Of a stretch of DNA of 64,000 bases, positions 24,382 through 48,588 are shown piece after piece. The notes under the pieces are model-generated. The model was not told the DNA's origin. It ran no database searches and saw nothing but the letters and a program-made list of their open reading frames with translations. Position 1 is the stretch's first letter. Each line of letters begins with the position of its first letter. Source of the stretch: a virus. The stretch lies in IMG/VR virus record IMGVR_UViG_3300050505_000464. One strand, 5' to 3'. Both the position numbers and the translations under genes were made by a program.

Positions 24382-24384
24382 GGG

Positions 24385-29118: not shown

Positions 29119-29373
29119 TTACGCGGCTTTCTTCAGCAGTTTCGTTGAAAGCCAGGCGACCGCGAGCGTCGTCACGACGCCGGCGACGATGGGGAAGAGC
29201 AAGCTCTGCTCCGCCGCCGAGATGATCGTCTGACGGCTGCCATTGACGCAGCCCGCGCACTCAGGAAAATCCGCGCTCACGCCGTCCGGGCAGATCTCGC
29301 AGTCCCCGCCGGACGAGATCATGCACGGATCGCACTCGGCGCCGAGTCCTCGGATGCTGCGTGCGTAGCTCAT
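29119..29373 (-). CDS. Small Cys-rich C-terminally anchored membrane protein (putative virion protein)
   Basis: IRGLG near N-terminus; C-terminal TM helix followed by KLLKK. Confidence 0.7.
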   Translation of the reverse strand: MSYARSIRGLGAECDPCMISSGGDCEICPDGVSADFPECAGCVNGSRQTIISAAEQSLLFPIVAGVVTTLAVAWLSTKLLKKAA

Positions 29374-29376
29374 CGA

Positions 29377-29838
29377 TCACTTCTTCAGCGAGACCCAAAC
29401 CGCGAGCCCCGTGATCGCACCGATGACCGCCACCGGCACGACCACATCCCAGCGCAGCGCTCCCGAGAAGGTCGTGACGGGCTCCCCTTCGGTGAGCGCG
29501 CCTTGCGCATTGCATCCGCAGCCGAGTCCCGCGATCGGTTTCTCGTACACCGGCTTGAAGTAGGCACCGATGCCCGTGCGAGAGTACTCGCCGACGCCGT
29601 CGACCGGACGGTAGGTGCTCTTCTGCGGAAACATCCCGAGACCTGCGATCGGCTTCTCGTACACCGGCTTGAAGTACGCCCCGAGCCCCTCTACCGCGAG
29701 CCGCGGCGGACCGACGAGGTTGGGGTTCGGCATGAAGGAGGGCCAGGGCGCCGTCGACCAGCCCGGCGAGCCCGCGTGCCACGGCGAATCCGGCTGGTGC
29801 ATCCGGTAGTACTGCGGCTTGATTTCGGCGTAGCTCAT
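29377..29838 (-). CDS. C-anchored membrane protein with repeated G-h-G motifs (putative virion protein)
   Basis: VEGLG, IAGLG x2, VDGVG, RTGIG; duplicated AYFKPVYEKPIAGLG; C-terminal TM followed by KK. Confidence 0.7.
   Translation of the reverse strand: MSYAEIKPQYYRMHQPDSPWHAGSPGWSTAPWPSFMPNPNLVGPPRLAVEGLGAYFKPVYEKPIAGLGMFPQKSTYRPVDGVGEYSRTGIGAYFKPVYEKPIAGLGCGCNAQGALTEGEPVTTFSGALRWDVVVPVAVIGAITGLAVWVSLKK
29531..29676. repeat. 32-bp intragenic direct repeat (31/32 identical)
   Basis: GCGATCGGyTTCTCGTACACCGGCTTGAAGTA at 29531-29562 and 29645-29676. Confidence 0.9.
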
Positions 29839-30506
29839 TGGTCGTAGGCCTTCTTCAGGAGATCGTAGGCGGCTGTTGCCGCGATGAATCGTGCTTTCGC
29901 ATCCGGGTTGCCCCCGTTGCGATCGGGGTGCCACTTGAGGGCTTCGCGCTTGTAGGCGGCTTGCACCTCAGCGAAGGTCGCGCTCCGTTTGACTCGAAGT
30001 GTTTTCCGAGCAGCAGCGATGCGCACGTCCACCGGATTCGGCGGAGGAGGCGCGCCGGGCGGCGGCTCTTTTGGCGGAGCCCCGGCCGCACTCGCTTGTC
30101 CGCTGGGTGCCGCTCGCGGATCGGTCGGATTACCACGCGTGCCCGCGGGCCACGGGATCTTGGGGGCGTGATCGGTGATGCCTTGCTGGATGCAGCCGAA
30201 GCACGCGGCCTGCCCCATGCGCGAGACGAAGCTGTGGTCGAGGCAGACGGGCTTCCGGCACACGCAGCACGCAGCGATAGCCGGACTCGAGCAGGGGACG
30301 CCGATCTGCGTCTGCGCGTCGCGGTAGACGACCTCGCACGGGATGCCGAGGATGAGCTGGGGGAGCCATAGCTGGGTTGCATGACGAGTGAGATCGTTGA
30401 TCCAGGGACCGATGGCGAACAGGACATTCCGGGGACCTTCGGGAGCGCCATCCGCGAATTGACTCGCGATGCGCCCGAGGGCGCCGAGAAAGCCTTCTTT
30501 CGCCAT
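29835..30506 (-). CDS. Zn-finger plus C-terminal J-domain (DnaJ-like co-chaperone)
   Basis: EVQAAYKREALKWHPDRN...AKARFIAATAAYDLL with intact HPD; Cys/His cluster PCSS..AACCVCRKPVCLDH...ACFGC. Confidence 0.85.
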   Translation of the reverse strand: MAKEGFLGALGRIASQFADGAPEGPRNVLFAIGPWINDLTRHATQLWLPQLILGIPCEVVYRDAQTQIGVPCSSPAIAACCVCRKPVCLDHSFVSRMGQAACFGCIQQGITDHAPKIPWPAGTRGNPTDPRAAPSGQASAAGAPPKEPPPGAPPPPNPVDVRIAAARKTLRVKRSATFAEVQAAYKREALKWHPDRNGGNPDAKARFIAATAAYDLLKKAYDQ

Positions 30507-30557
30507 TCAGCGGAGGGTAACACCAGGGGCATGGGGATCCAACGACAGCGCAGGCGC

Positions 30558-30962
30558 TCAGAGTTTCAGCACGTAAAAGAGCAGGGCACCCGCCATCACG
30601 CCAATGCCTGCGCTCGCGAGATCGGGCTTCCATGCGGGAGCCGGTTGTGGACCGATCTGGATCGTGGCGCTCCCATCGGCGCCGAGCACGCCGTCCTGGT
30701 ACGCGTACCCGAGCCCCTGCATCGCCTGCGGACTGAAGGCGGGCAGGAAGGTGCGACCGAGCGTGCCGTCTTGGTACGAGTGGCCCGGACCCGAGACGGC
30801 GCGGAAGTTCGCGCGGGTGCGGCGCGGGCCTGAGACGAGGCGCGCGACTGCGCCGAGCGCGCCGTCGCCGAATTGGCTCACGCTCGCTTGGTAATCCTGG
30901 AAGGGCGCTGCTTGCGAGAACAACCCGTCGTTGTAAGCCGCTTCTCCGATGCCTTTGTACAT
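30558..30962 (-). CDS. C-anchored membrane protein with DGxLG repeats (putative virion protein)
   Basis: YKGIG, MQGLG, DGALG/DGTLG/DGVLG; C-terminal TM. Confidence 0.7.
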   Translation of the reverse strand: MYKGIGEAAYNDGLFSQAAPFQDYQASVSQFGDGALGAVARLVSGPRRTRANFRAVSGPGHSYQDGTLGRTFLPAFSPQAMQGLGYAYQDGVLGADGSATIQIGPQPAPAWKPDLASAGIGVMAGALLFYVLKL

Positions 30963-30983
30963 GATGATCCCTTTTGTCTTTCT

Positions 30984-32048
30984 TTACCGACGACCGCTGA
31001 GCACGAAGCGCCCAATCAACAGCCCGATGGCTCCGCCGACAAGGAGACCAAAGATCTCCGCCTGCGCGCTCTCTGTGCGGAGCTGAGTGCAGGCGCTCGC
31101 TTCCGTCTCATCCGGGTAGAGCGCGGAGCAATTCGCTTGAAGCGAGGCTTGACTCCGGAATACGTCGAGCGGGTGCGTCATCGGTGACCAGGGTCAATGG
31201 TACCGGAGGGGGGCTTATTGGCGCAAACTTCTGAGGCGAGAGCTCACTTCAGCATGCCCGCCACATACGCCTGAGCGATGAGGCCGGAGTTGGGCGTGGT
31301 GCCCTGCTGCACGATGCCCGCCGAGGTGCCGTTGCCGAAGACGACCACGAAGTCATTCTGGGGGTTGGCAGCATTTTGCACGAGCGCCCAGAGGCCCGCT
31401 TGCTTGCCCGAGGCGTCCGCCTGCTGCTGCCACTGAGTGAGCGTCAGCGTGAGGGTCGTGGGGTTTTTCGGGCCGGGTGGCACCGTCATGGATGCCGCGC
31501 CGGGACCGGGGACGGGCGGTCCGGCGTTCGCGGCGGGGGAGGACGCGGACGAGGCCTTCGCGTGCTTCACGAAGAGCACAACCGCGCCCACGCCAACGCC
31601 GCCAATCAGTAACGCTTTTCCAAGACCCATGACTCTCTCCTTCAGAAATGCTTCGACACGTGGTGTCCGTATTTGATCCCGAGCACCGCGCCCGCGCCGA
31701 GCGCGAGACCGATCCAGGCCCACGTGGGGACGCCTGCGCGCATCTCGGCGTCGCCGAGACCGACGGCACGCCCGGCAAGCTTCAGGGGGTTGGCGTCGAT
31801 CTTCATGGCGGCGGAGGCGATCTTCTCGAGATCGGCCGGCGACATCACAAAGTCCATCAGCTCACGAGCCTCCGCTTGGGAGGCTGGAGCGTGGCCCAGA
31901 AGATGGCCCCGACGGTGCCGATCGCGAGCGCCCAGAAGATCTTCGTCGAGGTCGGCATCGGCGCGACGATCGGCGCCGGCAGCGCGTCAGCGCCCATGCC
32001 ACATCCGCAGCCACCGTCCGTGCCGCGCAGCGCAATGATGCCCGCCAT
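30984..32048 (-). other. Four small membrane-protein ORFs (30984-31181, 31244-31630, 31642-31857, 31857-32048)
   Basis: Each has one hydrophobic helix (three C-terminal, one N-terminal) flanked by basic residues. Confidence 0.65.
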
Positions 32049-32866
32049 CAGGAAGCCCTCCGGTAACGCTCGATGAGCTTGTAACCGCCAATGGCCGCGA
32101 CGGTGCCGAGACCCACCCAGAGGAGCGCCTTCATGTTGGCTCGCGCGGGCGACGCCATGGAGGCTTGCTGCGCCTGCGTCGCAGGCATCGTCGGCACGCT
32201 CGGTAGCGCCGTCACGGGCGCGGTGGGCGACACGCTAGGGGAAGCGGGGATCGTGGTCTGCACCGCGGGCGTTTGCGGGACCGTGAGCGGCGCACGCGCG
32301 GCTTGCGCGCTGAAGGCGCTCGAGAAAGATCCCGAGGGAGGCGCTGCGCGGTCAGAGCCCGCGCGCGGGATCGGCAGGATGTACGCGAGCACGCCGCCGA
32401 CGACGGTCGCGGCGTAGTTGAGCGAGGTCGGACCCGTCTTCGGATCGGTCTGATCGCGTAGGCGAAGCCAGTACAAGAAATAAATCTGCGGCGTCGCTTG
32501 CGTGTCGAGCTGCGCGTAGACGGCTTCGGTGTGATCGTAGGCGAAGGGCGTGCCTTCGAAGGTGCTGGCCACAGCGCTCGCGCGCGTGAGCACGGGCGAG
32601 ATGACCGCGAGCGCTTGTACTTCGGAGCTCGTGGTGTTCGCGACGGCAACGAGCTGGAAATCGGAGACGGCGAAGGCTTGGTAGTCCTTCGAGGGTGTGG
32701 CCTCTTGCCAGGACGAGTCGCTCGTCTGGCGCGCCCACTCGGTGTACACGAGCGATCCCTGCGGGCTCACGATGCTGATGAGCGCCTGGTCCGCAAATGG
32801 CAGCGCCGCATCGTCGGCGCCGAGGCCGGACACGTCATTGCGATAAAAAGAGGGACCGAATTTCAT
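32048..32866 (-). CDS. C-anchored membrane protein with Pro/Ser/Thr linker (putative virion protein)
   Basis: N-terminal FYRNDVSGLG; beta domain; PST linker; TM followed by RYRR. Confidence 0.7.
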   Translation of the reverse strand: MKFGPSFYRNDVSGLGADDAALPFADQALISIVSPQGSLVYTEWARQTSDSSWQEATPSKDYQAFAVSDFQLVAVANTTSSEVQALAVISPVLTRASAVASTFEGTPFAYDHTEAVYAQLDTQATPQIYFLYWLRLRDQTDPKTGPTSLNYAATVVGGVLAYILPIPRAGSDRAAPPSGSFSSAFSAQAARAPLTVPQTPAVQTTIPASPSVSPTAPVTALPSVPTMPATQAQQASMASPARANMKALLWVGLGTVAAIGGYKLIERYRRAS

Positions 32867-32890
32867 GGGGTGCTCAGCGAGAAAGAATCA

Positions 32891-32997
32891 CGAGGAAGCA
32901 ACCGTGCCCACCTGTCAGGACAACCCACTGCCGCATGAGGTTGTTTGGTCCTCGGTTGGAGTGAGAAGGTTCGGGGGTTGGCACGGTTGCTCCTTCG
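32891..32997. promoter_or_regulatory. Intergenic long-range inverted repeat (structured RNA element)
   Basis: 18-bp arms 32891-32908 and 32980-32997 (16/18 complementary, 12-bp perfect core) enclosing a CAACC/GGTTG inner stem. Confidence 0.6.
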
Positions 32998-33023
32998 AGA
33001 AGGGATTGCGGGGGACTGACGGA

Positions 33024-33860
33024 TCAGTAGCCTCCCGGCTTTTCGATGCAGGGCGCGAGAGCTCGCTGCATCGCATCGAGCTGCCCCTCGGGCAGCATGA
33101 AGCCGAAGATCTCGGCCTCGAAGAACGCGATCGGGATCGTGACCGCGCGGAAGATGTGGCAGCTCGGGATGAGCGTCTGGGTCGAGCGCAGGATCCAGGG
33201 AGCGGGCACGTGGAGCAGGCCCTGCCGGTGGTGGCGCTGGGGCATCAGTGACAAGTCGCCCGTGCCCGACTGCGCGTTGGTGAAGCGCGCCTGCGTGAAC
33301 TGATCGTCGCTCGCCGAGACCGCGACCGGCGTGCCCGGGATGTAGCCGGGGTTCGGCTGGGTTTGGTAGGCGGGGTTCGATTTCTCGAAGGGCGGGACGG
33401 GGTTCAGCTCGTAGCGAAAGTTGCCCTGGCGTGTGTTATCGGCTTCGAGGTTCCAGCCCACTTGCGTGGGCAGGCGGTTCTGTTCGAGCTCGATGAACTC
33501 GCCCGCGACGATCCCGCTTGGGCGGTAGATCGCAAAGCGGTAGTCGAGCACGACGAAGCCCATCAGCTGCGGCACGCGGATGCTGCCCATCTCGAACTGA
33601 CACGGCGCCCCGGGCGTTGCCTGGAAGATGCCGTCGATGGGCAGGCGTCGAAAGACGTACTCGAGCGGGATGATCGAGTCGGGCTTCAGGTAGCTCGCGA
33701 GCTGTCCACCAGCGAGGAGCACCCGATCGGCCGTGCAGGCCGTCATGCTGCCGCCCTCTTGCGAGGGGCCAAATCCTTGCCCGAACGCGATGCTCGGATT
33801 GGCCTGTTGGATCTGGCCGAAGGCCGAGCGCTGCGCGGGGCTGAACAGAGGCTGGTTCAT
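33024..33860 (-). CDS. Putative single-jelly-roll capsid-type protein 3
   Basis: Soluble, beta-strand pattern: SIRVPQLMGFVVLDY early; PAPWILRSTQTL and EAEIFGFML late, parallel to the two neighbouring genes. Confidence 0.4.
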   Translation of the reverse strand: MNQPLFSPAQRSAFGQIQQANPSIAFGQGFGPSQEGGSMTACTADRVLLAGGQLASYLKPDSIIPLEYVFRRLPIDGIFQATPGAPCQFEMGSIRVPQLMGFVVLDYRFAIYRPSGIVAGEFIELEQNRLPTQVGWNLEADNTRQGNFRYELNPVPPFEKSNPAYQTQPNPGYIPGTPVAVSASDDQFTQARFTNAQSGTGDLSLMPQRHHRQGLLHVPAPWILRSTQTLIPSCHIFRAVTIPIAFFEAEIFGFMLPEGQLDAMQRALAPCIEKPGGY

Positions 33861-33874
33861 GGGCCTCTAGTGTA

Positions 33875-34795
33875 TCAGTAGGGGCCGCTGCCTGGGGGCT
33901 GCACGATGCGATAACCGTGGAAACCGATCGTCAGGATGCCGTCCGGGAGGCGCGTGATGGGATCGGTCGCGCCCGCTGCGGCGTCGGCCTCGTCGTTGAT
34001 GCCTTCGACGTAATCCCAGCCGGACGCAATGAAGGGGAAGGACCCGGCTCCGCCACCGGCGAAGGACTGGATGTTGCCGTACGAGGGATTGTTGATGTGC
34101 TGGGGTAGCACATTGAACGTCATCGTCTCGCCTCGCTCGAACACGTCCAAGGCGCCGAGCGCGAAGGGCGCGTTGATCTGCGGCGTCCAGAAGGAGCTCG
34201 GGACGGGGATGTTGGAGCGAGGGAAGGAGGATCCGGCGTTCAGGAACTGAATCGAGTAGTCCGCTTCCATCGATCGGAAGGGAGAGCCGTTGGACGGCGA
34301 AAGGATGTGGGGAGCGCCTGTCCCGGGGAAGGCTTGTTGCTGCTCGGCTTGTCCACGCGGCATGCCATCCATCAGATCCCAGGCGGAATGAATCGGGCGG
34401 TAGCGACCGAAGGAGCGGCCGAAGAAGTTCGCTTTCGCACCGGAGGTGGGGTCGATGCGCTGAAGCTGCAGCTGGCTGATGAAGGTCGCCACGCGGGCGA
34501 CGGCGACGAAAGGTCCCTCTTGGGAGACCAAGATCGTGCCCTGCTTCACGCCGTTGTCGTTGGCGCCGATGAGGATGTTGACGAGCATATCGAAGGGCAC
34601 GCGGCGCCCGGGGATATTCTCGATGTACATCAAGTTCGGGGTGCGCTCGCGGTTGCCCTGCTGCACCTTGAAGTTCGCTTGGATGTCGTCCAGGCGCTTC
34701 TGGATGGCTTGCGTTTGTGTCAGCGCTTCGCGGGCGGAAGCGGCGGCATAGTTGACCGACTGCATGAGTCGGTTCGGGTCGAACGAGTTGCTCAT
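33875..34795 (-). CDS. Putative single-jelly-roll major capsid protein 2
   Basis: TILVSQEGPFVAVA, QFLNAGSSFPRSNIPVP, PFALGALDVFERGETMTFNV and LTIGFHGYRI; pattern recalled from two-MCP tailless prokaryotic viruses. Confidence 0.5.
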   Translation of the reverse strand: MSNSFDPNRLMQSVNYAAASAREALTQTQAIQKRLDDIQANFKVQQGNRERTPNLMYIENIPGRRVPFDMLVNILIGANDNGVKQGTILVSQEGPFVAVARVATFISQLQLQRIDPTSGAKANFFGRSFGRYRPIHSAWDLMDGMPRGQAEQQQAFPGTGAPHILSPSNGSPFRSMEADYSIQFLNAGSSFPRSNIPVPSSFWTPQINAPFALGALDVFERGETMTFNVLPQHINNPSYGNIQSFAGGGAGSFPFIASGWDYVEGINDEADAAAGATDPITRLPDGILTIGFHGYRIVQPPGSGPY

Positions 34796-34858
34796 GATGT
34801 TCTGAGTGCCTTCTCCGCTCGGCGGATGAAGTACCCCGCGAAGGGCGGGTGCCTACAG

Positions 34859-34905
34859 AAAAACCAGGTGAGCGGCTCAGCCCCGAAGAGCGAGCCGCTG
34901 ACCTG
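34859..34905 (-). terminator. Intrinsic terminator / attenuator after putative MCP 1
   Basis: 14-bp stem (13/14; arms 34865-34878 and 34892-34905) followed on the minus strand by TTTTT (34863-34859). Confidence 0.75.
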
Positions 34906-34947
34906 TTGGTTCAATCCGCTCAGGAACGCCCCGAGCGGACCGAATCG

Positions 34948-35703
34948 TTACTGCACGTCTCGGCTGAACAGCCCGTCGAACGTGAACGTCACGACCTTGT
35001 TGATCGCGTCGATGGCGTTCAGGTTGTCGCGGAGGCTCAACATGTTTCGCTGACCTTGGCTGGTCGCCGCGATCTGCGAGTTGGCGTCCGTCGGCAGCGC
35101 GTAGATGTTCGCGGTGCACTTGATGTTCTGGCGCGGTGGGATCAGGATCGCGCGGGCGAGCCGCAAGATGCCCGAGTGGCCATCCGTGCCGGAGTTCTGC
35201 ATGTGGATGAGGTCCGTCGCGCCGCCGAGCTGCGCCGAGAGACCGCCGCCCGTGGGGAAGTACCAGGTCGGCATGTTGGTGATCGAGAACTTCTCGCCGG
35301 TGCCGAAGCTCCAGTGAAGTTGCTCTTCCGTCTGCCAGTGCAGACGAAACACGTCTTCGATCTGGCCGGGGGCCTGACCGACGCCGGCGCCGGCGCCCGT
35401 CCACAGGTCGAGGTTGCCGTAATCGCCGTTCAGGGCGAGCTCGCCCGTCACGCCGCCCGCGACGCGGAGGATGCTGTTTCGGTACCAGCTGAACACGCGC
35501 AACGCCAAGACGACGTGCGACTGATCGGACGGCAGGGTCGATCCGTTCAGGAGGTTGGTCGTCGCCGGGGTACGGACGGCGCCGTTGCCACCGAAGAGGT
35601 CGGTCCCGTCCTGCACGTTGCCCGCGGTGTAGCCGCCGGTACGGATCAGGGTGTCGAAGAAGGGCTGGTGCACGCGCTCACGAATGGAAACTACTTTGGC
35701 CAT
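34948..35703 (-). CDS. Putative single-jelly-roll major capsid protein 1 (251 aa)
   Basis: QPFFDTL...DLF...TNLLNGSTLPSDQSHVVLALRV and RLARAILIPPRQNIKC...VTFTFDGLFSR; strong AAGGAAG RBS; terminator downstream. Confidence 0.55.
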   Translation of the reverse strand: MAKVVSIRERVHQPFFDTLIRTGGYTAGNVQDGTDLFGGNGAVRTPATTNLLNGSTLPSDQSHVVLALRVFSWYRNSILRVAGGVTGELALNGDYGNLDLWTGAGAGVGQAPGQIEDVFRLHWQTEEQLHWSFGTGEKFSITNMPTWYFPTGGGLSAQLGGATDLIHMQNSGTDGHSGILRLARAILIPPRQNIKCTANIYALPTDANSQIAATSQGQRNMLSLRDNLNAIDAINKVVTFTFDGLFSRDVQ

Positions 35704-35776
35704 GATGGTCTTCCTTTTTGTGCGGGCTTCCATTTTTATCGAGGCTGGTTCCTCAGCGGCCCGTACAACGGCCCAA

Positions 35777-35837
35777 GCCCGGGTCTCTGGTTTTCCAGAG
35801 ATACCGGGCCGGAGCCTTTCATCACCCGATCGGGTGA
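35777..35837. promoter_or_regulatory. Intergenic hairpin and perfect 16-bp palindrome between core and MCP 1 genes
   Basis: Hairpin gcccgg.tctctgg-tttt-ccagaga..ccgggc (35777-35809); TCACCCGATCGGGTGA at 35822-35837. Confidence 0.65.
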
Positions 35838-35847
35838 CTGTCTTCAC

Positions 35848-37890: not shown

Positions 37891-37941
37891 CGTCAGGACA
37901 GACCTCTGCGCTCCCTTCAGAGCGCTCTAGCGGTCCTGACG
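37891..37941 (-). promoter_or_regulatory. Stem-loop abutting the core-protein start codon
   Basis: CGTCAGGAC/GTCCTGACG 9-bp arms (37891-37899, 37933-37941) with inner GCGCTC/GAGCGC stem; one arm is directly adjacent to the ATG. Confidence 0.55.
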
Positions 37942-39961: not shown

Positions 39962-39963
39962 GA

Positions 39964-40530: not shown

Positions 40531-40551
40531 GAGACTCCAGCTGGAGATCGA

Positions 40552-40881
40552 TTAGCGGCGAGATTTACCTAGCAGAAACCCTAAGCCCAGGGCGACCAAG
40601 ATCGCTGCCCCGAGCTTCACCCCGTCGGATGACAAATCCAAGCCGAGCCCCTTGAGCCCAGCGGTGCTCATGGGCGCGATCATCCCGCGAGCGATGGGTC
40701 CGGATCCGATCAGCACCCTATCGCTCGGAATGGCGCGGCCGATGTCCGTCGAGGCCACGCCGAGCTCAGTGGTGTTCGTGAGGGAAGGGACGGGCAGATC
40801 ATCTCCGAGCCCGTAGCGCGTGCTCGGGCTGTCGAAGTAATCGTACCCGCCCGTGTCCGGGCGCCAGCGGGAGTAGATCAT
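40552..40881 (-). CDS. C-anchored membrane protein
   Basis: RYGLG, LKGLG; TM followed by KSRR; start assigned at MIYSRW. Confidence 0.65.
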   Translation of the reverse strand: MIYSRWRPDTGGYDYFDSPSTRYGLGDDLPVPSLTNTTELGVASTDIGRAIPSDRVLIGSGPIARGMIAPMSTAGLKGLGLDLSSDGVKLGAAILVALGLGFLLGKSRR

Positions 40882-40892
40882 GACCGAGGGGC

Positions 40893-41405
40893 TTACTCTC
40901 CGCCCGGCGTCTGGTAGTACGTCACGAAGACCGAGCCCGTGTCCGTCGTGCTCTTGGAGGTGACGCGCACGGTCGTCTCGCTGATCGCTTCGGCCATCAG
41001 CGCGCCCTCGGTGCCCCCGAATGCCGTGTACGACACGTGGAACCACCCGCCGGGATTCACGTCGAATCCCGCGATGTCAACGAAGCTCCCGCTCTCGTTG
41101 GCGACCAGATCGCCCGTGCCCATCTGCACGAGCGCGACGAAGCGCCCAGCGACGGCGCTCGATCCGAGGCCGTTGATGACGTTCGCCATGCCGGAGATGT
41201 CTTCCGAGATGGCGACGGCCATGTTCTTTTTGAGGCGGTACATGCGGTTCGAGTCGCGCACGTAGAAGAGCGTCGCGGCCGGGAAGGCGTTGACGTTCTG
41301 GCCGCGGAGCGATTGGCCGTCGGACTTGTCGTCCTGCACGCCGACCGTGTTGAGGATCGTGACGCGTTTTCCGACGCCGATGTCTGAGGGTGCGTTGTCT
41401 GCCAT
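40893..41405 (-). CDS. Beta-rich protein, paralog A (spike/vertex candidate)
   Basis: Shares DG.SL.GQNVN.FPA..LFYV..SNR.Y.L.KN and V..G(L/I)GSSA.AGRFVA with 41449-41928. Confidence 0.65.
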   Translation of the reverse strand: MADNAPSDIGVGKRVTILNTVGVQDDKSDGQSLRGQNVNAFPAATLFYVRDSNRMYRLKKNMAVAISEDISGMANVINGLGSSAVAGRFVALVQMGTGDLVANESGSFVDIAGFDVNPGGWFHVSYTAFGGTEGALMAEAISETTVRVTSKSTTDTGSVFVTYYQTPGGE

Positions 41406-41448
41406 GTGAATACTCTCTTCTCTTGCTTGGGTGATGGTGGGGTTGGGA

Positions 41449-41928
41449 TCAGAGCGCGGCCGGTGACTCCACGAAGACCGCGAGCACCTGCGAGTTGTCC
41501 GAGTTGGAAGAGCTCGTGACGGTCGCCACGTTGTCGGCGGTCTTGGCCGCGTGGATGATGCCCGGCGTGCCCGAGGCGGTCACGTAGCTCACCAGGAATA
41601 CTCCCCCCGCCGACAGATCGAGCCCGGTGATGACGCCGGTGCCGTTTGAGAGCTGGGCAACGCCGTATTGTTGCACAGCGACGAAGCGTCCTGCCTCGGC
41701 CGAAGACCCGATCCCATCGACGACGTTCAGGCCGTTTTGGGAGCCGACCGCATCGGGCAGGTTTTTGCGCAGGGTGTAGAAGCGGTTGGACTCGGCGACG
41801 TAGAACAGCACGCCCGCCGGAAAGTTGTTGACGTTCTGGCCGGCGAGCGAATCGCCGTCGGTCTCATCACCGATGTGGGTAACGACGACGAAGCGCTTGG
41901 ATGGCGGGAGAAGAGCGAGATCCGACAT
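41449..41928 (-). CDS. Beta-rich protein, paralog B (spike/vertex candidate)
   Basis: Clear tandem paralog of 40893-41405. Confidence 0.65.
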   Translation of the reverse strand: MSDLALLPPSKRFVVVTHIGDETDGDSLAGQNVNNFPAGVLFYVAESNRFYTLRKNLPDAVGSQNGLNVVDGIGSSAEAGRFVAVQQYGVAQLSNGTGVITGLDLSAGGVFLVSYVTASGTPGIIHAAKTADNVATVTSSSNSDNSQVLAVFVESPAAL

Positions 41929-41938
41929 GACTTGTCCT

Positions 41939-42832
41939 TCAGGCCGAAGCCTTTTTGGTGAGCAGGTTCTTGATGACGTAGGGCGCGGCGAGATACATCG
42001 CGTAAATCGCTACCCCTCCGATCGCGTACGGCACGAAGGCCAGCAGCGTGTCTTTGACCGCCTTTGGGATCGTGGTTGCGGCGTTCTTGTTGGGATCCGT
42101 CAACGTCGCGACGCACTGCTGCGTCGTCGCGGCGTCTCCCGCGGTCTGAGCGTTTTCGCAGACCTTGGCGACGATGGCGTTCTTCTTGTTCAGATCGATC
42201 GCGCTCACGACCACCCAGGCCAGGAGGCACAAGGCGGCAATCGCCACGACGACGAGACCCCCGACGATCGCCGGCGCGATGCCGAGGCCCTTTTGGGAGT
42301 TCTGGGACTGATCGATGCCGAGCGCCTTGTAGAGGCCGAGGTTCCGCATCATGACAAGCGCATTCATGGTGCCGACCGCCGTGTTGGCGTGGGAGGCGAT
42401 CTCGGCGTCCGAAAGCCCCGAGTGGTGAATGGTCTCGTCGGAGTGCAGCAAAAACGCATAGAGCGACGACTGGTAGGCGTGACTCACGAGGTAACGGATT
42501 GATTCGCGAGCGAGCCCGACCTGCACCTCTTTGAGCGCGGGATTCGGGCCGGTAACGAGCCCGAGGATGGACGAGGCGATCGATCGCAGCGTGTCTTCGC
42601 TCGTCGCGTAGCTCTTCTGAATCGCCACCGGATCGCCACCCACATCGAAGATCATGCCGCCGACCGCCGCCACCATCGCCGCCTGCGCGGGGGCCATGTA
42701 GCCCGTGATGTAGTCCCGATCCCATACGCTCGCCCGTCCGCGCTGCGTGAGTGCGGCCCAGTCGATGCCGCGGAGACCGAATTCGGTCACCGCCAGCCCC
42801 GCGAGATCGTAGATCGTGGCTGTGTTAAACAT
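41939..42832 (-). CDS. Membrane protein with two TM helices
   Basis: QKGLG immediately before TM1; VCENA...QQCV Cys pair between the TMs; basic C-terminus. Confidence 0.65.
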   Translation of the reverse strand: MFNTATIYDLAGLAVTEFGLRGIDWAALTQRGRASVWDRDYITGYMAPAQAAMVAAVGGMIFDVGGDPVAIQKSYATSEDTLRSIASSILGLVTGPNPALKEVQVGLARESIRYLVSHAYQSSLYAFLLHSDETIHHSGLSDAEIASHANTAVGTMNALVMMRNLGLYKALGIDQSQNSQKGLGIAPAIVGGLVVVAIAALCLLAWVVVSAIDLNKKNAIVAKVCENAQTAGDAATTQQCVATLTDPNKNAATTIPKAVKDTLLAFVPYAIGGVAIYAMYLAAPYVIKNLLTKKASA

Positions 42833-42837
42833 CCGCC

Positions 42838-43317
42838 TCAGGTCCCGTGAGTTTTCTTCCAGCGCTTGTAGCTGACGTAGCTCGTGGCCGCCGCGGCCAC
42901 CGCGAGCGCTCCGTACACGTACGGATGGATCTGATTGAAGGGGAGCGTCACGTCAGCGCGGAGCGATGAGACCGGATCGCCCGCGAGCAGGAAGCGCTTG
43001 ACCGCGCCCGGTGCGCGATTGTCGATCGCGAGCATTTCGTTCGGGGCGACGGCGCCCATCGGTACGTACGATCCCTTCATGCCACCGACTCCCTGCAATG
43101 ATCCGTCTTGGAAATAGCCGAAGTCATCGTACGGCGCGCGGAAATGCGCGATGCCGATGTAGCTCCGCCCCGCGGGCCAGCCGTCTTTGAGCTGGGTCGC
43201 TTCTCCCATGCCTCGCTGCCCGGGCATGCTGCCCGGTCCGCAGCCCAGCCCCTGCAGCACCGCTTGCGTAAACGGGGCATAGGAGTTGGCGGTTTCCACG
43301 TACGTGCGACGAGTCAT
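42838..43317 (-). CDS. Membrane-associated protein with G-h-G motifs
   Basis: LQGLG, QRGMG, LQGVG; late hydrophobic helix followed by YKRWKK. Confidence 0.65.
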   Translation of the reverse strand: MTRRTYVETANSYAPFTQAVLQGLGCGPGSMPGQRGMGEATQLKDGWPAGRSYIGIAHFRAPYDDFGYFQDGSLQGVGGMKGSYVPMGAVAPNEMLAIDNRAPGAVKRFLLAGDPVSSLRADVTLPFNQIHPYVYGALAVAAAATSYVSYKRWKKTHGT

Positions 43318-43320
43318 GGG

Positions 43321-44382
43321 TCAGACCAGGCCCTTCTTCTTGGCGTAGTAGTAGCCCGCTCCCGCCACCGCGAGCGCGAGTCCCCCGACGAGCATCGAGG
43401 CGCTCGTGAGGGGATGCTTGCTTGGCGGCGTCGGCGCCGGCGGCGCGACGGCCGGAGGCGTCGATCCACCGGGAGCAGTCGAGGGCGACTGAGAGGCGGG
43501 CTTCTTCGACGGCAGCGTGTACGCCTGGCAATTCTGCCCGTTCATGGTGAGCAGGTTGTTGCCGGTGTTGTCACCGATCCACTTCATCGCGCCGCACGTA
43601 GCCGCGTCGAGTTTGTTCGTGAGGGGGATCGGCAAGTAGCCGTAGCTGTCGAGGATGCGGTTGATGTTTGACTGGAGAGCGGCCATCTCGGCGTCTTCGA
43701 CGCCCCATTGATGGGTGATGGCAGCAGCCACTTGCTGGCCCTGCACCACGTTGACCTGAGGGGCCACGTAGGTCGTGATGGGTTTACTCGCGCCGACGAC
43801 CGTGGGGTTCGTGCCGGGGGAGCTGCCGCAGTAGGCGTACAGGTTGTAGTCGGTCCACACCGTCGATTGACGCGGGGTCGTGTTGTAGAGGTAGCTCGCC
43901 GCTCCACACGTGGCAGGACCGAGTTTCCCGTCGACCGTGATGAGCTTGTAGCCGCTCCGCTTGAGATCGGCGTTCAGTTGCGTTTGTGCTTTTTTCACCG
44001 TCGCCGCGTCGAGCGATGCGGTTTGGTTCGAGATGGCGGCGTACTGGTTACAGTACTTCGGCACGCAGATCGATCCGTCGTTGGCAGCCGAGTACGCCGC
44101 CGTGCAATCGTCGACCGACATGCCGTACTGAGCCGCGTTCTTGACGCAGTCGTCGTGCGCCGCTGCCCATTGCGTGGCGTGGCAGTCCTGAAACTCCTTC
44201 ACGCCCCAGCACTGCCAGGGCACTTCGCCCGGCGCTGCGGAGGAGCCGAGGCCGGAGATGGCGCCGTTCGTGAAGTACTCACCCATCTGACTCCGCTGGT
44301 AGCGTTCGATGGGCGTGTAGCGCGGAAGCACCGAGCCATTGAGCGGGAGGGCGTTCTTGCTCTTGGGGTTGAAAATGCTCAT
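43321..44382 (-). CDS. C-anchored protein with two peptidoglycan-binding-like domains
   Basis: VKKAQTQLN...GY..ITVDGKLGPATCGA and MAALQSNIN..L...GY..IPLTNKLDAATCGA; ISGLG; TM followed by KKK. Confidence 0.7.
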   Translation of the reverse strand: MSIFNPKSKNALPLNGSVLPRYTPIERYQRSQMGEYFTNGAISGLGSSAAPGEVPWQCWGVKEFQDCHATQWAAAHDDCVKNAAQYGMSVDDCTAAYSAANDGSICVPKYCNQYAAISNQTASLDAATVKKAQTQLNADLKRSGYKLITVDGKLGPATCGAASYLYNTTPRQSTVWTDYNLYAYCGSSPGTNPTVVGASKPITTYVAPQVNVVQGQQVAAAITHQWGVEDAEMAALQSNINRILDSYGYLPIPLTNKLDAATCGAMKWIGDNTGNNLLTMNGQNCQAYTLPSKKPASQSPSTAPGGSTPPAVAPPAPTPPSKHPLTSASMLVGGLALAVAGAGYYYAKKKGLV

Positions 44383-44385
44383 GAC

Positions 44386-45114
44386 TTAGCCTCTTCGTTT
44401 CTTGATGAAATACACGGCGCCGATGGCCAGGAGCCCGCCGCCCACGAAGCCCAGGACCTTCTTCGTGCCCGAGCTCACCATCGGCATCGAGCTCGTGACG
44501 GGCGTGAGCGACGCGGTCGTCGGGATGGGTTTCGTGTTGGGGGCAGCCGGTCCCGTGCCGCAGCCCTTGCTCGCGTCCTGCACCGTCTTTACGTCCTGGC
44601 ACGTGGACGGCATGGCCTGCAGGCCCGCGGGGCCCGCGATGACCGATCCGCCGCACGTCGCCGGCCCGAGTTTGCCGTCCGCGATGATCGGGCAGAGCCC
44701 GGCGGCGATCAGGTTTTGATTGATCTTGTTTTGGAGAGCGAGCGTCTGCGCGCTGTATTTCCCCCAGGGGTAGTTGACCGCATCGCTCGAGGCATCCCCG
44801 AGCGTCTGCGCGTGACCGAGACTCGGCGCGCCGGCGAGGTTGCCGTCGAAGACGCCGCCGCCGTAGCCGCCCGGTCGAAAGATCCCTTCCCCCGCGTCGA
44901 TGGGGTTGTTCCCGACGTTACCGAGGCCGGAGTAGGGTTTGTCGGGGATCATGTCGATGTCTCGCGGTGGAAGGAAAACGGTCGTGGGTTGCTGGATCTG
45001 CGGCATCCCGAACACGGGCCGCGCCCAGAGTCCCCCATGAAAGCGCGTCGGGTACGGATTGACGTGCGCGACGTAGGGCGTCGGGACGCCAGCGGGGTAT
45101 CCGGGGTTTTTCAT
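44386..45114 (-). CDS. C-anchored protein with one peptidoglycan-binding-like domain
   Basis: TLALQNKINQNLIAAG..PIIADGKLGPATCG; YSGLG; TM followed by KKRRG. Confidence 0.7.
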   Translation of the reverse strand: MKNPGYPAGVPTPYVAHVNPYPTRFHGGLWARPVFGMPQIQQPTTVFLPPRDIDMIPDKPYSGLGNVGNNPIDAGEGIFRPGGYGGGVFDGNLAGAPSLGHAQTLGDASSDAVNYPWGKYSAQTLALQNKINQNLIAAGLCPIIADGKLGPATCGGSVIAGPAGLQAMPSTCQDVKTVQDASKGCGTGPAAPNTKPIPTTASLTPVTSSMPMVSSGTKKVLGFVGGGLLAIGAVYFIKKRRG

Positions 45115-45116
45115 GG

Positions 45117-45674
45117 TTAGCGGCCCTTGTGGTTGAGGGCGATCATCGACTCGATGCCGAGCCCGATGGGGCCGAGCCCGAGGCCCGCGACCACGCCCCA
45201 CCAGCCGTAGGTCGCTTCCTTATCGCGGCTCGGCGCGACGGCCTTGCCGACGTAGTACGAGCCCACGCCCGTGAGCACGAGCCCGACCGCGACCGCGGCG
45301 ACCAGGATGCCGCTCGCGGCTTCTACCGCTTGGCCGGGAAGCGCGCTCGCGGTGTCCTCACCGAGGCCGCTGACCGCGCGAATGCCGCTCACGAGCGGCG
45401 AGCCCGTGAAGAAGCTCCCGAGCACGCCGCTCCGCGATGCGCCGGGCGTCGGCATCTGGTACAGGCGGCTGTACGCGCCGATGCCGTCCGGCGATCCGGC
45501 CATGCCGCGCCCGAGGGGCGCGAGCGGATGGGATGCGGCGTTGTAGGGAGCGTTGCCGTAGCCGGCGTTCGCCTGCACCAGATCGCTGTGGCGCACGGGC
45601 AGCTCCTGACCCTGGGAAGGGCCCGAGGCCATGGTCACGTGTTGCTCGTCTTCGTCGTCTGAATAATCAAACAT
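45117..45674 (-). CDS. Membrane protein with C-terminal TM hairpin
   Basis: PDGIG, VSGLG; two hydrophobic helices; start assigned at MFDYSD. Confidence 0.65.
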   Translation of the reverse strand: MFDYSDDEDEQHVTMASGPSQGQELPVRHSDLVQANAGYGNAPYNAASHPLAPLGRGMAGSPDGIGAYSRLYQMPTPGASRSGVLGSFFTGSPLVSGIRAVSGLGEDTASALPGQAVEAASGILVAAVAVGLVLTGVGSYYVGKAVAPSRDKEATYGWWGVVAGLGLGPIGLGIESMIALNHKGR

Positions 45675-45678
45675 GGGT

Positions 45679-46383
45679 TTATTTCTTCTTCTTGAAGAGC
45701 GCGTACAGCGCCCCCGCTGCGGCGCCCACGAGCAGCACCTTGCCGACCGTCGCCGCCGTGCTCGTCGGCACGGGAGCGGGGCCGTCACCGAGCCCGCCCA
45801 TCCCTCGCATGCCGTGGATCCCTTGCCGAATGCCCTGGGGGTTTTGCATCCAGTCGGCGATGTTGACGCCGGGCATGGGCGCGGCCTCTTGCCAGCGCAC
45901 CACATTTTGGGGCGTGGAGTAGCGGCCCTGCTCGATGAAGGCGATCTGCGCGGCCGAGTCGAGCGACACGGCGCCCGACGGCACGCCGACCACGCGGCGC
46001 CCGGTCGTCGCGTCCACGACTTCGCTCAGGCTGAAGGGCACTTCGCGCGCGTGGTAGCCGGGGAGGGAATAGCGCGCCGCAAACACGCCCGCGTCCGGGT
46101 GCACGTTCGGGTGCGTACCCGGAGGATCGAAGACGCCGTTCGATTGAATGTCATCCATCTCGGCGAGCAGATTGAGCTCGTTGGAGGCCCAGCCGGGATC
46201 GGCAGATTCGTCGGACACGTCCAGGTCCGTGCCGGCGAGGCGTCGTCCGTATCTCCGATCGAAGGGCGCGCTGTATGCTTCGGCCGTGCCAGACGAGTAG
46301 CGCGTGTCGCTCGGTCCGACCGCGACCATGGACGGCAGATCGCCCGTGTACGGTTGCGCAGGGTAGCGGGGGTAATTCGGCAT
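45679..46383 (-). CDS. C-anchored membrane protein
   Basis: MRGMGGLG before the TM; ends LFKKKK; start assigned at MPNYP. Confidence 0.65.
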   Translation of the reverse strand: MPNYPRYPAQPYTGDLPSMVAVGPSDTRYSSGTAEAYSAPFDRRYGRRLAGTDLDVSDESADPGWASNELNLLAEMDDIQSNGVFDPPGTHPNVHPDAGVFAARYSLPGYHAREVPFSLSEVVDATTGRRVVGVPSGAVSLDSAAQIAFIEQGRYSTPQNVVRWQEAAPMPGVNIADWMQNPQGIRQGIHGMRGMGGLGDGPAPVPTSTAATVGKVLLVGAAAGALYALFKKKK

Positions 46384-46403
46384 GGGGATCTTTTTCTTCT
46401 TCT

Positions 46404-46901
46404 TTAGCCGGTCGCGATTTTGTAGACGACGACTGCTGCGATACCGAGGCCGAGGACGAGGCCCCAATTCTTCTTGTACGACTGCGCTGCCACCGCGGGA
46501 CTGAGCGACGAAGCGCAGTAGTGCACCGTCACCGTACCCCAAGTGCCGGTCGTCGGCGATTGACGAGGCACCTTCTCGTCGAGCATCGTTTGACCCGCGG
46601 GGCATGGATCGGGCGGGTACTGCGAGGGCGCGCTCGAGGGCGCCGGGCAGATGTGACCGGGCGTCGTGAGGATTTGATTGGCGAGCGTGCAGGGATCGTT
46701 CGGGTCGGTGGAGATCGATTTGCCGCCTTGCGCGTTGCACGCCTTCTGCGCCGTTGCCCATGCCTTCGGCTCGAGGCAAGGCAAGCACGAGCAGGTATTC
46801 GGATCGGCGCAATCGACCTTGTAACCCTGGGCGCAGAGCGGCCCACTCGCGGGCCCGCGGAGGCTCGCGCTGGATGACTGGAAGGTCGCCGAATAACTCA
46901 T
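46404..46901 (-). CDS. Cys-rich C-anchored membrane protein
   Basis: W..AQKAC...DPNDPC motif; about 10 Cys; C-terminal TM. Confidence 0.65.
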   Translation of the reverse strand: MSYSATFQSSSASLRGPASGPLCAQGYKVDCADPNTCSCLPCLEPKAWATAQKACNAQGGKSISTDPNDPCTLANQILTTPGHICPAPSSAPSQYPPDPCPAGQTMLDEKVPRQSPTTGTWGTVTVHYCASSLSPAVAAQSYKKNWGLVLGLGIAAVVVYKIATG

Positions 46902-46906
46902 CTGGG

Positions 46907-47275
46907 TTAGGACTTTTTCCTCATCACGAGGTACAGCGCGCCGCCGCCCGCGGCGAGCGCCGCGAGCAGTCCCCAGCGACGAAACCCGCCGGCCGCGCTC
47001 GTGCTGGCGGGCGTGGTGCTCGATGAAGGCGTGCTTGAAGCGGGCGGCTGGTACGGCGCAGGGATCGAGAAGGTCGGGCACGGCGTCATGCTCGCGATCG
47101 AGCAGGGATCGTTTGGATCGATGGTGGCGGCGGTGTTGATGTTGAGATCGCCGAGACCGCGGAGCGCGCGCAGGTTGACGCGGCCCATCTCCACGTAGCC
47201 GAAGCCCTTGACGGACAAGCGCGCGCTGCATGCCTGCTTTGCTGCTTGCCAGGTTTTGTAATCGACACAGGACAT
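46907..47275 (-). CDS. Cys-containing C-anchored membrane protein
   Basis: W.AAKQAC..VKGFG..LRGLG..DPNDPC; Ser/Thr linker; TM followed by RKKS. Confidence 0.7.
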   Translation of the reverse strand: MSCVDYKTWQAAKQACSARLSVKGFGYVEMGRVNLRALRGLGDLNINTAATIDPNDPCSIASMTPCPTFSIPAPYQPPASSTPSSSTTPASTSAAGGFRRWGLLAALAAGGGALYLVMRKKS

Positions 47276-47278
47276 GGG

Positions 47279-48055
47279 TCAGGACGCTTTCGGTTTCTTG
47301 AAGGTGCGGTAGAGCGCGTAGCCGCCGCCGGCGATCACGACGAGGATGAGCCCGTTTTTGACGAGCCCCGCGCTGCGCGTGGCCGCAGCGCTCGCAGGCG
47401 GAGTCGATTGCGGGATCGAGCTCGAGACAGGCACGGTCGCCGGCACGGAGCTCGGGCCTCCTCCCGGCATGCCAGGTGTGGCGCTGCTCGCTGGCGGCGG
47501 TGCCGGCGGGCGCGGCTCGGGACGAAGCGCGGGCGGCGGCGTGAGCGCGGCGGGGCGCGCGGGAGCCGGGCCCAGAGGAGGCGGCATCGGCACCGGGGGC
47601 TGGCACACCGGCAGCAGCGCGAGGGCGCAGGAGGATCCGGTGGGATCGGCGCCGAGTCCCTTGACCGTCGCCGAGACACGCGCGCAGTCCGCCTGCCAGG
47701 CGTCGTGCTGCGCCTGCGAGACGCAACCGGGATAGCCCGGAGGAGTCACGACGCCGGCGGCGCGGGCGGCCGTGTTGGCGCGGTCGCGCGCCACTTGATT
47801 GGCGAGCTGCTGGCGCTGGGCGGCGGCGACTGCCGCGGCGCGGGCGGCGTTTTGCGCGTTGTACGCGGCCATCGCCGCGGCGTAGCTCGACGCGGCGCCC
47901 GCGGAGGCCGCTGCGTAAGCCTGCACCGCGCGATCGTAGGCGGCTTTTTCTTTGAGCCAGGCGTCATGGTCGGTCTGGTAGGCCACCATCGCGCTCGCGT
48001 ACGCGCTGGACGCATCGCCCATGCCCGCGAGCTTTCCGGAAAATGCGTAGCTCAT
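47279..48055 (-). CDS. Ala-rich coiled-coil plus Pro-rich C-anchored membrane protein
   Basis: LAGMG at N-terminus; W..DC..VKGLG.DP...C; TM followed by KKPK; ATGA overlap with the upstream enzyme gene. Confidence 0.7.
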   Translation of the reverse strand: MSYAFSGKLAGMGDASSAYASAMVAYQTDHDAWLKEKAAYDRAVQAYAAASAGAASSYAAAMAAYNAQNAARAAAVAAAQRQQLANQVARDRANTAARAAGVVTPPGYPGCVSQAQHDAWQADCARVSATVKGLGADPTGSSCALALLPVCQPPVPMPPPLGPAPARPAALTPPPALRPEPRPPAPPPASSATPGMPGGGPSSVPATVPVSSSIPQSTPPASAAATRSAGLVKNGLILVVIAGGGYALYRTFKKPKAS

Positions 48056-48588
48056 CCGATGCTCCAGATCTTGTAGGTGGTGACGCGCTTGAGCATCGAT
48101 GCCTCGTCGGTGCCCGCCACCGGATCGACGATGATCCACTTGTTGCTCTTCGGCTCCAGGGCGCGCGCAAACACGTGCGCAAACGACCCCGGACGCCCGA
48201 AGCCGACGGTCACGTAGGTCACGTCGCGCCCGAGCTGGCGGCAGAGGGTGCCGATGAGGAGGGCGATTTCGTCGCAGTCTGCGACGGCGCGGCCGCGCTG
48301 CACGATCTCCTCGCACATGCGCTCGGGATCTTGGACTTGCTCGACGGCGCTGGCGTCGTTCGAGTACTTGACTTTTTCGGCGACGAAGTTTCGGACGGCC
48401 AGGATTTCCGAGAAGTAATCCTTGGGCGCGATGTCCCGGATGATGTGGTCTTTCAGGCTCCGGACGAGCGTCGACTGCTCACCGCGCGGGCCGACCGTCA
48501 TCGACACCATCATTTTGATCGTGTCTTCTGGCCCATGAAAGGGCGCGATCTGGGTCGGGTAGGTGGAAGCGATGGCGAGTGCGGGCAT
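48052..48588 (-). CDS. Transglutaminase-like (Cys-His-Asp) enzyme, candidate virion maturation protease
   Basis: VKYSND...VQDP, ADCDE (Cys), FAHVF (His), WIIVDP (Asp); first gene of the membrane-protein run. Confidence 0.8.
   Translation of the reverse strand: MPALAIASTYPTQIAPFHGPEDTIKMMVSMTVGPRGEQSTLVRSLKDHIIRDIAPKDYFSEILAVRNFVAEKVKYSNDASAVEQVQDPERMCEEIVQRGRAVADCDEIALLIGTLCRQLGRDVTYVTVGFGRPGSFAHVFARALEPKSNKWIIVDPVAGTDEASMLKRVTTYKIWSIG

Follow-up and report, generated by a model that had tools for sequence, protein, structure and literature searches.

A transglutaminase-fold enzyme and a recurrent Gly-Leu-Gly tag: a possible targeting-and-maturation code in uncultivated bacterial viruses

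The adenovirus protease (AVP, adenain) cuts pIIIa, pVI, pVII, pVIII, pX, pTP and L1 52/55K at (M/I/L)XGG↓X and (M/I/L)XGX↓G sites (the arrow marks the cut bond), the latter form being represented in pVI by IVGL↓G (PMC4246237). One short hydrophobic-x-Gly-x-Gly consensus is common to these many unrelated particle precursors, and a similar arrangement is described here for a 64,000-nucleotide stretch of viral DNA (IMG/VR virus record IMGVR_UViG_3300050505_000464, hereafter the window), in which 16 to 19 otherwise unrelated proteins encoded by one run of genes share such a motif and the gene heading the run (48052-48588) encodes a transglutaminase-fold enzyme. An earlier note on this DNA had proposed that the two form an adenovirus-like maturation system in a bacterial virus. 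The likeness includes the candidate enzyme, also a Cys-His-acid thiol enzyme, and a very basic putative genome-associated protein (35848-37890) that likewise bears the motif. Unlike in adenovirus, however, the enzyme has a transglutaminase core and is not of clan CE, the host is bacterial, the carriers are mostly tail-anchored, the middle residue of the motif is limited to Leu-like residues and cutting is proposed from sequence.

In bacteriophage T4, internal proteins carry a capsid targeting sequence that is removed by the prohead protease gp21 at (L/I)xE. The resemblance lies in short N-terminal leaders, conserved in their start and end motif, that several unrelated particle proteins bear and for which both loading and trimming are possible; the differences are that T4 is a tailed phage, that gp21 is a serine protease of the herpesvirus-assemblin type, that its motif is another one and that no membrane proteins are involved. 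LapG provides a comparison on the side of the enzyme, being a small transglutaminase-fold Cys-His-Asp enzyme, a proven site-specific protease and a structural neighbour of our enzyme model. It cleaves at a small-residue motif (di-alanine), but it is periplasmic, calcium-dependent and devoted to a single substrate, the adhesin LapA, and no sequence-level match to it was found for the enzyme of the window. The literature searched yielded no account of this virus clade or of the tag, nor of any phage maturation protease with a transglutaminase fold.

A glycine motif concentrated in one gene run

Codon-bias gene calling gave 28 minus-strand genes, packed or overlapping and unbroken from 48588 down to 29119, namely the enzyme gene (48052-48588) and, downstream of it, the 27 genes (29119-48055) that we call the module. 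For 47279-48055, 46404-46901, 45679-46383, 45117-45674, 44386-45114, 40552-40881 and 29377-29838, the longest open reading frame (ORF) was cut back to an internal start abutting the upstream stop. The earlier note had the operon begin with the enzyme gene; this gene is the first after a gap of ~0.5-0.9 kb, a scan of that gap gave no promoter and no convincing terminator, and an operon start at this place is plausible.

In its strict form, [MILVY]xG[LMIVF]G, the motif occurs 30 times in the 5913 amino acids of the module (5.07 per 1000), in 16 of its 27 proteins, versus 2 times in the 11589 amino acids of the 67 other proteins called in the window (0.17 per 1000). Shuffling the residues within each protein gave a mean of 3.6 matches, and none of 5000 shuffles reached 30, so that Gly-richness (10.0% Gly in module proteins versus 6.8% in the others) does not account for the motif count. 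Widening the first position to Q, A or F brings the number of motif-bearing module proteins to ~19. The enrichment anticipated by the earlier note was thus borne out; its estimate of about 18 proteins is close to the relaxed count, and all the motif strings that it quoted were found in the genes to which it had assigned them.

The form of the motif is equally constrained. Among the 97 GxG tripeptides of the module, Leu occupies the middle position 30 times versus 7.2 expected. A logo drawn from 104 G-h-G sites (h, hydrophobic) outside membrane helices, in the window and five relatives, is asymmetric, with V, L, I or M at position -2 in 59 sites (57% versus 21% background), Leu in the middle in 64, and A, D, S or E at position +1, after the second Gly, in 63 (61%). 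An aromatic residue is frequent 5-9 residues before the motif, as in EYFxxGxxGLG, YAPFxxAVLQGLG and YFQDxSLxGLG. The mirrored form G-h-G-x-h was found 69 times versus 122 forward matches over all loci, partly from membrane helices.

Most sites lie outside membrane helices, either near the N-terminus (genes starting at 29119, residue 7; 30558, residue 2; 32048, residue 12; 42838, residue 21; 46907, residues 22 and 38; 47279, residue 9) or in the linker before a C-terminal anchor (45679, residues 192-199 of 234; 40552, residue 76 of 109; 41939, residue 180), which fits the earlier description of sites following a short N-terminal peptide or preceding a transmembrane segment. Four to five strict matches fall within membrane helices, for example VLGLG (46443-46457) and VAGLG (45177-45191), and probably do not belong to this signal. 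The motif-bearing proteins and the enzyme are listed below; a hyphen marks the end of a motif.

48052-48588, minus strand: transglutaminase-core Cys-His-Asp enzyme, 178 amino acids, candidate processing protease; first gene of the packed run.
47279-48055, minus strand: tail-anchored, 258 amino acids; leader MSYAFSGKLAGMG-D (48017-48031) and internal VKGLG (47651-47665).
46907-47275, minus strand: tail-anchored, 122 amino acids; VKGFG (47198-47212) and LRGLG (47150-47164), both kept in the related locus L002.
46404-46901, minus strand: tail-anchored, 165 amino acids, Met-Ser-Tyr start; its sole strict match is within a membrane helix.
45679-46383, minus strand: conserved soluble domain, MRGMGGLG-D (45787-45810), then a C-terminal anchor.
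45117-45674, minus strand: membrane protein, 185 amino acids; VSGLG-E (45360-45374).
44386-45114, minus strand: tail-anchored, 242 amino acids; YSGLG-N (44920-44934) and a DGKLGPATCG element.
43321-44382, minus strand: tail-anchored, 353 amino acids; GEYFTNGAISGLG-S (44245-44259) and a weak PG_binding_1-like repeat.
42838-43317, minus strand: tail-anchored, 159 amino acids; conserved leader ending in YAPFTQAVLQGLG (43243-43257), then QRGMG (43204-43218) and LQGVG (43084-43098).
41939-42832, minus strand: membrane protein, 297 amino acids; QKGLG (42281-42295) immediately ahead of a membrane helix.
40893-41928, minus strand: two paralogous soluble proteins, 170 and 159 amino acids; mid-domain INGLGSSAVAGRF (41163-41177) and VDGIGSSAEAGRF (41707-41721), conserved in L002.
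40552-40881, minus strand: tail-anchored, 109 amino acids; RYGLGDDLPVP, and LKGLG-L (40642-40656) ahead of the anchor.
35848-37890, minus strand: 680 amino acids; Arg/Lys-rich N-terminal half, hydrophobic segments and a repeat tail.
32048-32866, minus strand: tail-anchored, 272 amino acids; leader MKFGPSFYRNDVSGLG-A (32819-32833).
31642-31857, minus strand: small membrane protein, 71 amino acids; AVGLG-D (31753-31767), a relaxed match.
30558-30962, minus strand: tail-anchored, 134 amino acids; six-residue leader MYKGIG-E (30945-30959) and MQGLG-Y (30708-30722).
29377-29838, minus strand: tail-anchored, 153 amino acids, Met-Ser-Tyr start; VEGLG, IAGLG (twice) and VDGVG in AYFKPVYEKPIAGLG repeats.
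29119-29373, minus strand: tail-anchored, Cys-rich, 84 amino acids; leader MSYARSIRGLG-A (29341-29355).

Ten related loci with 10 kb of sequence downstream of the enzyme gene were compared with the window, at the following levels of enzyme identity.

L002, L007 and L008: 83%, 70% and 66%.
L003-L006: 54-57%.
L013-L015, a far more distant clade: roughly 35-40%.

In all ten, the enzyme gene heads a same-strand run encoding small proteins with a C-terminal helix and basic tails; over the window and the related loci, a C-terminal membrane helix is predicted in 112 of 152 module proteins versus 4 of 175 others. Motif density is 2.1-5.3 per 1000 amino acids downstream of the enzyme gene and 0-1.0 upstream in 10 of 10 loci, L013-L015 included. 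The earlier note had held that absence of the motif from homologues keeping the enzyme would speak against its reading; in each of these enzyme-bearing loci the motif is enriched, the exceptions being two short contigs, L010 and L011, that are uninformative or have no motif-bearing neighbour. For four distant enzyme homologues the contigs are short and end soon after the enzyme gene or carry nothing downstream of it.

Conservation is also seen site by site. The strict G-h-G was kept in aligned columns at 21 of 59 orthologue sites, versus 2.2% predicted from the 28% identity of the flanks. All five orthologues in the 42838 family have LQGLG unchanged, even where enzyme identity is as low as 54%. 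In the 47279 family the N-terminal motif is kept in five of five orthologues, with a leader of 9-35 residues that always ends in the motif (…GKLAGMG-D, RSIQGLG-V, ELRGLG-L, RGLRGLG-D, CALRGLG-D) and is followed by conserved sequence. In the 45679 family, G-h-G or LG (a relaxed match) is present in the pre-anchor linker of five of seven orthologues, and L004 and L008 have MKGLG or MAGLG at the position equivalent to QKGLG of 41939-42832. The data support a motif that is real, strongly enriched and under selection.

A feature that is new relative to the earlier note is the Met-Ser-Tyr (MSY) N-terminus, found in 19 of 152 module proteins versus 0 of 175 others (Fisher p=2.5e-7; window, L002-L008 and L013-L015) and, in the window, in four of the genes whose starts had been shortened. 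The Ser codons comprise AGC, AGT, TCG and TCC, and this mixture of codon classes points to selection on the protein level. The ATGA start/stop overlap as a cause of "MS" starts was rejected in view of the TCG and TCC codons and the conserved Tyr. The shortest leaders are MSYHGLG, MSYRGLG, MYKGIG and MTNGLG, and the shared unit is MSY-x(n)-h-x-G-L-G.

The enzyme and its relative in a tailless phage

The product of 48052-48588 matches Pfam PF01841 (Transglut_core; E=9.2e-6, 26.3 bits versus a cut-off of 23, residues 69-170 of a 192-amino-acid reading from the GTG at 48630). At least 185 homologues with 58-100% identity were found, on contigs up to 139 kb, and a profile search reached 3119 cluster representatives. 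Thirty-one homologues show no variation at the catalytic residues C105 (DCD), H138 (HVF) and D155 (DPVAG), and the triad is also invariant in a 30-sequence alignment of distant homologues with 31% mean identity. The AlphaFold2 (AF2) model (predicted local distance difference test, pLDDT, 84.8; predicted template modelling score 0.83) was matched by Foldseek with probability 1.00 to 3isr and 3kd4, both "putative cysteine proteases", and to PNGase, LapG, PeiW/PeiP and TgpA (template modelling, TM, score ~0.45-0.56), with arylamine N-acetyltransferases also among the matches; LapG structures gave E=2.4e-4 (4u65_E) and 1.6e-3 (4fgq) at TM ~0.5. Swiss-Prot models in AFDB added UPF0252, the kyphoscoliosis peptidase and PNGase. 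A sequence-profile search of the alignment against the PDB gave no match. As to clan CE, only PF01841 was matched and no clan CE structure is among the top 50 Foldseek matches, PF00770 not having been searched separately. The enzyme belongs to the transglutaminase-like superfamily, its fold is settled, and the intact Cys-His-Asp transglutaminase-like gene recognised earlier is confirmed.

Some enzyme homologues bear the motif themselves. In N-terminally extended homologues it stands right before the conserved core (…SLRGLRGLG-GQPIAD, YSFHGLG-AQPIAD, RRPFLQGLG-TLPIAD), and one distant homologue starts with (M)SYH…YHGVG-D. The RRxFLQGLG form was considered as a Tat signal and rejected, as no hydrophobic region follows.

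The only match of the enzyme in 50,697 phage records is gp34 of SSIP-1 (Salisaeta icosahedral phage 1; tblastn E=1e-3), the one cultured relative found and a tailless virus with an internal membrane, an architecture of the PRD1-adenovirus type and two capsid protein types (PMC6356626). When the two proteins were compared by hhalign (probability 96.8%, E=2.5e-10), their DCD, HV and DP catalytic motifs fell into register. In GenBank gp34 is annotated as "structural protein", in a record that carries no enzymatic annotation. As in the window, gp34 heads a run of genes for small tail-anchored membrane proteins (13833-16320), and the motif is present: in gp34 itself (VRARGMG-E, between the catalytic domain and its own C-terminal anchor), in the leader of ORF36 (…VQAQGMG-D) and in gp37 (VNRGLG-A). 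The two systems differ in that gp34 has 304 amino acids and its own C-terminal anchor, whereas the enzyme of the window is a soluble protein of 178, and in that the SSIP-1 genome is 43.8 kb long, versus 110-139 kb for the related contigs. A further difference is that tblastn with the putative capsid protein 33875-34795 found nothing in the 50,697 phage records, among which is SSIP-1.

This putative capsid protein is one of three adjacent beta-rich proteins (33024-35733; 278, 306 and 261 amino acids) that match no family. It has at least 711 metagenomic homologues with 53-91% identity, many on contigs of 110-138 kb. Its AF2 model is poor (pLDDT 50.7); in VIA it scores highest against vertical jelly-roll capsid proteins (EhV-201, PBCV-1, HCIV-1, adenovirus hexon, SPV1), at Z 5.6-6.3, which is within noise, Foldseek gave nothing significant among viral models, and a PDB sequence-profile search returned coiled-coil noise only. 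Pfam models for Terminase_6N, TerL_ATPase, portal and HK97 had no match in four related records (those of L002, L004, L005 and L006; 110-131 kb, 69-85% complete by estimate). For the present virus, a tailless nature like that of SSIP-1 has weaker support. The only FtsK_SpoIIIE match is a 13-bit P-loop in a 546-amino-acid ORF ~15 kb upstream of the enzyme gene in the L006 record (locus L016). Of the "virion-type" character given to the motif-bearing proteins in the earlier note, what can be added is the annotation of gp34 as structural and the weak jelly-roll matches just described, which are consistent with it.

Readings of the tag

The window is best explained as part of a large uncultivated clade of bacterial viruses, with a particle-building module of mostly tail-anchored membrane proteins. 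For the tag, the reading that we put first, while judging it rather short of probable, is that of a particle loading-and-processing signal cut by the transglutaminase-fold enzyme. Standing at the end of a short N-terminal leader, often with an MSY start, or in the linker before a C-terminal anchor, the tag would mark proteins for the assembling particle; the soluble 178-amino-acid Cys-His-Asp enzyme encoded at the module head would then cut it, stripping leaders and freeing domains from anchors, in a scheme akin to the action of the adenovirus protease at (M/I/L)XGX↓G or to the trimming of capsid-targeting sequences by T4 gp21. We infer that the tagged proteins belong to the particle, that cutting takes place at the motif, which bond would be cut and that the enzyme would be the cutter. 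Both GL↓G, as in adenovirus, and GLG↓x are possible scissile bonds; in the latter case Leu would occupy P2, on which the specificity of papain-like enzymes usually depends most.

Cutting by the enzyme is proposed because the motif resembles a protease site (its two Gly are fixed, a hydrophobic residue precedes them and a small or acidic one follows), because it stands at leader/domain and domain/anchor junctions, because it constantly accompanies the only protease-fold protein of the module, and because ClpP, the S78 prohead protease and C48 (PF02902, adenain/Ulp1-type) gave no match in the four related records. Compared with the functional class formed by AVP, T4 gp21, poxvirus I7 and African swine fever virus pS273R, the system has a shared consensus site on several putative particle proteins; its candidate enzyme is virus-encoded at the module head in all related loci, and the homologue gp34 is annotated as structural. 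Of the adenovirus-like maturation system of the earlier note, the enrichment, the co-occurrence, the invariant triad and the (M/I/L)XGX↓G form all hold, and cutting by this enzyme, the foremost of the readings weighed here, we place below even odds. When the enzyme was modelled in complex with residues 1-80 of 42838-43317, the score was 0.02, which counts neither for nor against binding.

Several observations weigh against this proposal. The fold would equally allow protease, isopeptidase, amidase, cell-wall hydrolase or cross-linking activity, and PeiW/PeiP, PNGase, TgpA and N-acetyltransferases are among its structural matches. Cell-wall enzymes and peptidoglycan-binding-like elements lie nearby and would suit a cell-wall or isopeptide hydrolase. 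In the 42838 family, conservation is higher in the leader than beyond the motif, which suggests that the leader has its own function. The motifs repeated in tandem (three of GEYFSSGVSGLG, two of AYFKPVYEKPIAGLG) and those placed mid-domain in 40893 and 41449 resemble binding or structural repeats more than sites of cutting, and conserved leaders and tandem repeats together suggest binding. L010 and L011, two short contigs with distant enzyme homologues, have no motif-bearing neighbour. The motif ahead of the core in some enzyme homologues may reflect self-processing, but it equally fits an enzyme that is itself a tagged particle protein.

It is conceivable, if somewhat less so than processing, that the tag stays uncut and serves to dock or load proteins onto an assembly partner that they share (a capsid shell, a scaffold or a membrane patch), the enzyme having another job, such as in entry, as a cell-wall endopeptidase or isopeptidase carried by the particle, or in protein cross-linking. 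The conserved aromatic-bearing leaders (YAPFxxAVLQGLG, EYFxxGxxGLG, YFQDxSLxGLG) resemble extended binding peptides, and tandem repeats would allow multivalent binding. A cell-wall role agrees with the fold match to the prophage pseudomurein endoisopeptidases PeiW/PeiP, with the SLT (L013, L015) and VanY/M15 (L015) enzymes that adjoin the module in relatives, with the two module proteins bearing a peptidoglycan-binding-like DGKLGPATCG and with gp34 of SSIP-1 being, by annotation, a particle protein. However, two fixed Gly followed by a small or acidic residue are typical of a protease site, the sites fall exactly at leader/domain and domain/anchor junctions, leader length is free to vary in the 47279 family, and the enzyme has no cell-wall-binding domain.

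We regard it as unlikely that the motif is cut by a host enzyme or by an unrecognised viral protease, with the transglutaminase-like protein just another tagged particle protein. Some enzyme homologues do carry the leader or motif as a substrate would, and most module proteins have no recognisable family, so that a protease could hide among them; but the enzyme is the only protease-fold protein recognised and the most constant partner of the motif across clades, and ClpP, S78 and C48 were not found in the four related records. Still less probable is a recurrent structural element, such as a hinge or turn in Gly-rich linkers, that has no common partner or enzyme: the raised Gly content of the module and the raised mirrored form would agree with it, but not the shuffles, the strong preference for a middle Leu, the asymmetry at positions -2 and +1, the retention of the motif in orthologues whose flanks diverge, or its coupling to MSY starts. 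A sortase- or exosortase-type C-terminal sorting signal was rejected since many sites are N-terminal or distant from the anchor, and a glycine-zipper membrane motif since most sites are outside helices.

Extended to the particle as a whole, the processing proposal becomes one of a targeting-and-maturation code, in which a transglutaminase-fold protease and an "MSY…hydrophobic-x-Gly-Leu-Gly" tag would serve an SSIP-1-like, probably tailless and membrane-containing clade with genomes up to ~135 kb: precursors would be loaded into the internal membrane, then trimmed or released, in convergence with the adenovirus protease but with a different fold. We advance this broader scheme more tentatively than the cut itself.

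Other genes and significance for the clade

Among the module proteins, 35848-37890 has ~370 N-terminal residues that are almost pure Arg, Lys, Ser and Ala, and a tail (36007-36369) with MYGLG, three GEYFSSGV(N/S)GLG units and four EAAAG(h)G units; it is a candidate membrane-anchored genome-condensing protein. The mid-domain motifs of the soluble paralogues 40893-41928 (~165 amino acids each, motif context …NGLGSSAVAGRF) may be structural rather than processing sites. At the corresponding place, L008 (16059-19892) encodes five tandem proteins of similar size, and these proteins, like the paralogues, are possibly vertex or spike proteins. In the two tail-anchored proteins of 43321-45114, DGKLGPATCGA elements recur, with weak similarity to PG_binding_1 (E=0.0085); they are kept in the L002-L008 orthologues and hint at cell-wall contact. 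A J-domain protein (29835-30506; Pfam DnaJ E=1.5e-12) is among the few in the module that have neither motif nor membrane anchor, and in L007 (15676-20336) three large Gly-rich collagen-like proteins (GSTGSTGATGGTGATG…) take the place of part of the module. NCBIfam yielded no informative match to the enzyme or to the principal proteins of the module. PHROGs had no match for the enzyme or for most module proteins, and in 38390-39961 tail and lysis families were matched only weakly, through glycine-zipper regions.

The gene 49537-52080 lies directly upstream of that of the enzyme and encodes an 847-amino-acid coiled-coil, Pro/Gln-rich protein that matches no family and could be scaffold-like; proteins of 806-808 amino acids are found at the equivalent place in L007 and L008. 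A cluster just beyond the module, on its downstream side (22533-27721), encodes two GT4-type glycosyltransferases (one with a match to "GT4-conflict", E=1.3e-12) along with an FkbM methyltransferase and a D12 adenine methylase. The window has 64% G+C and is phage-like throughout; it encodes a DnaB helicase, a D12 methylase, an integrase, glycosyltransferases and an M20 peptidase, and no tRNA genes were found in it.

Consensus-site maturation proteases and capsid-targeting sequences are known kinds of system, and the novelty here would lie in the fold of the enzyme, the tail-anchored clients and the bacterial host. To our knowledge, no maturation protease has been described for the cultured tailless membrane-containing bacterial viruses (PRD1, PM2, P23-77, SSIP-1), and in eukaryotes their counterparts, namely adenovirus, giant viruses and virophages, all rely on a cysteine protease cutting Gly-containing consensus sites. 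The group is large, with at least 711 homologues of the putative capsid protein, 3119 enzyme cluster representatives and related contigs of up to 139 kb, and the hypothesis is directly testable with one small soluble enzyme and short peptide substrates. If true, it would provide a simple sequence rule for finding particle proteins in viruses where most genes have no recognisable family, and a group of bacterial viruses would have an analogous code with a different fold, which would bear on the evolution of particle maturation in this lineage.

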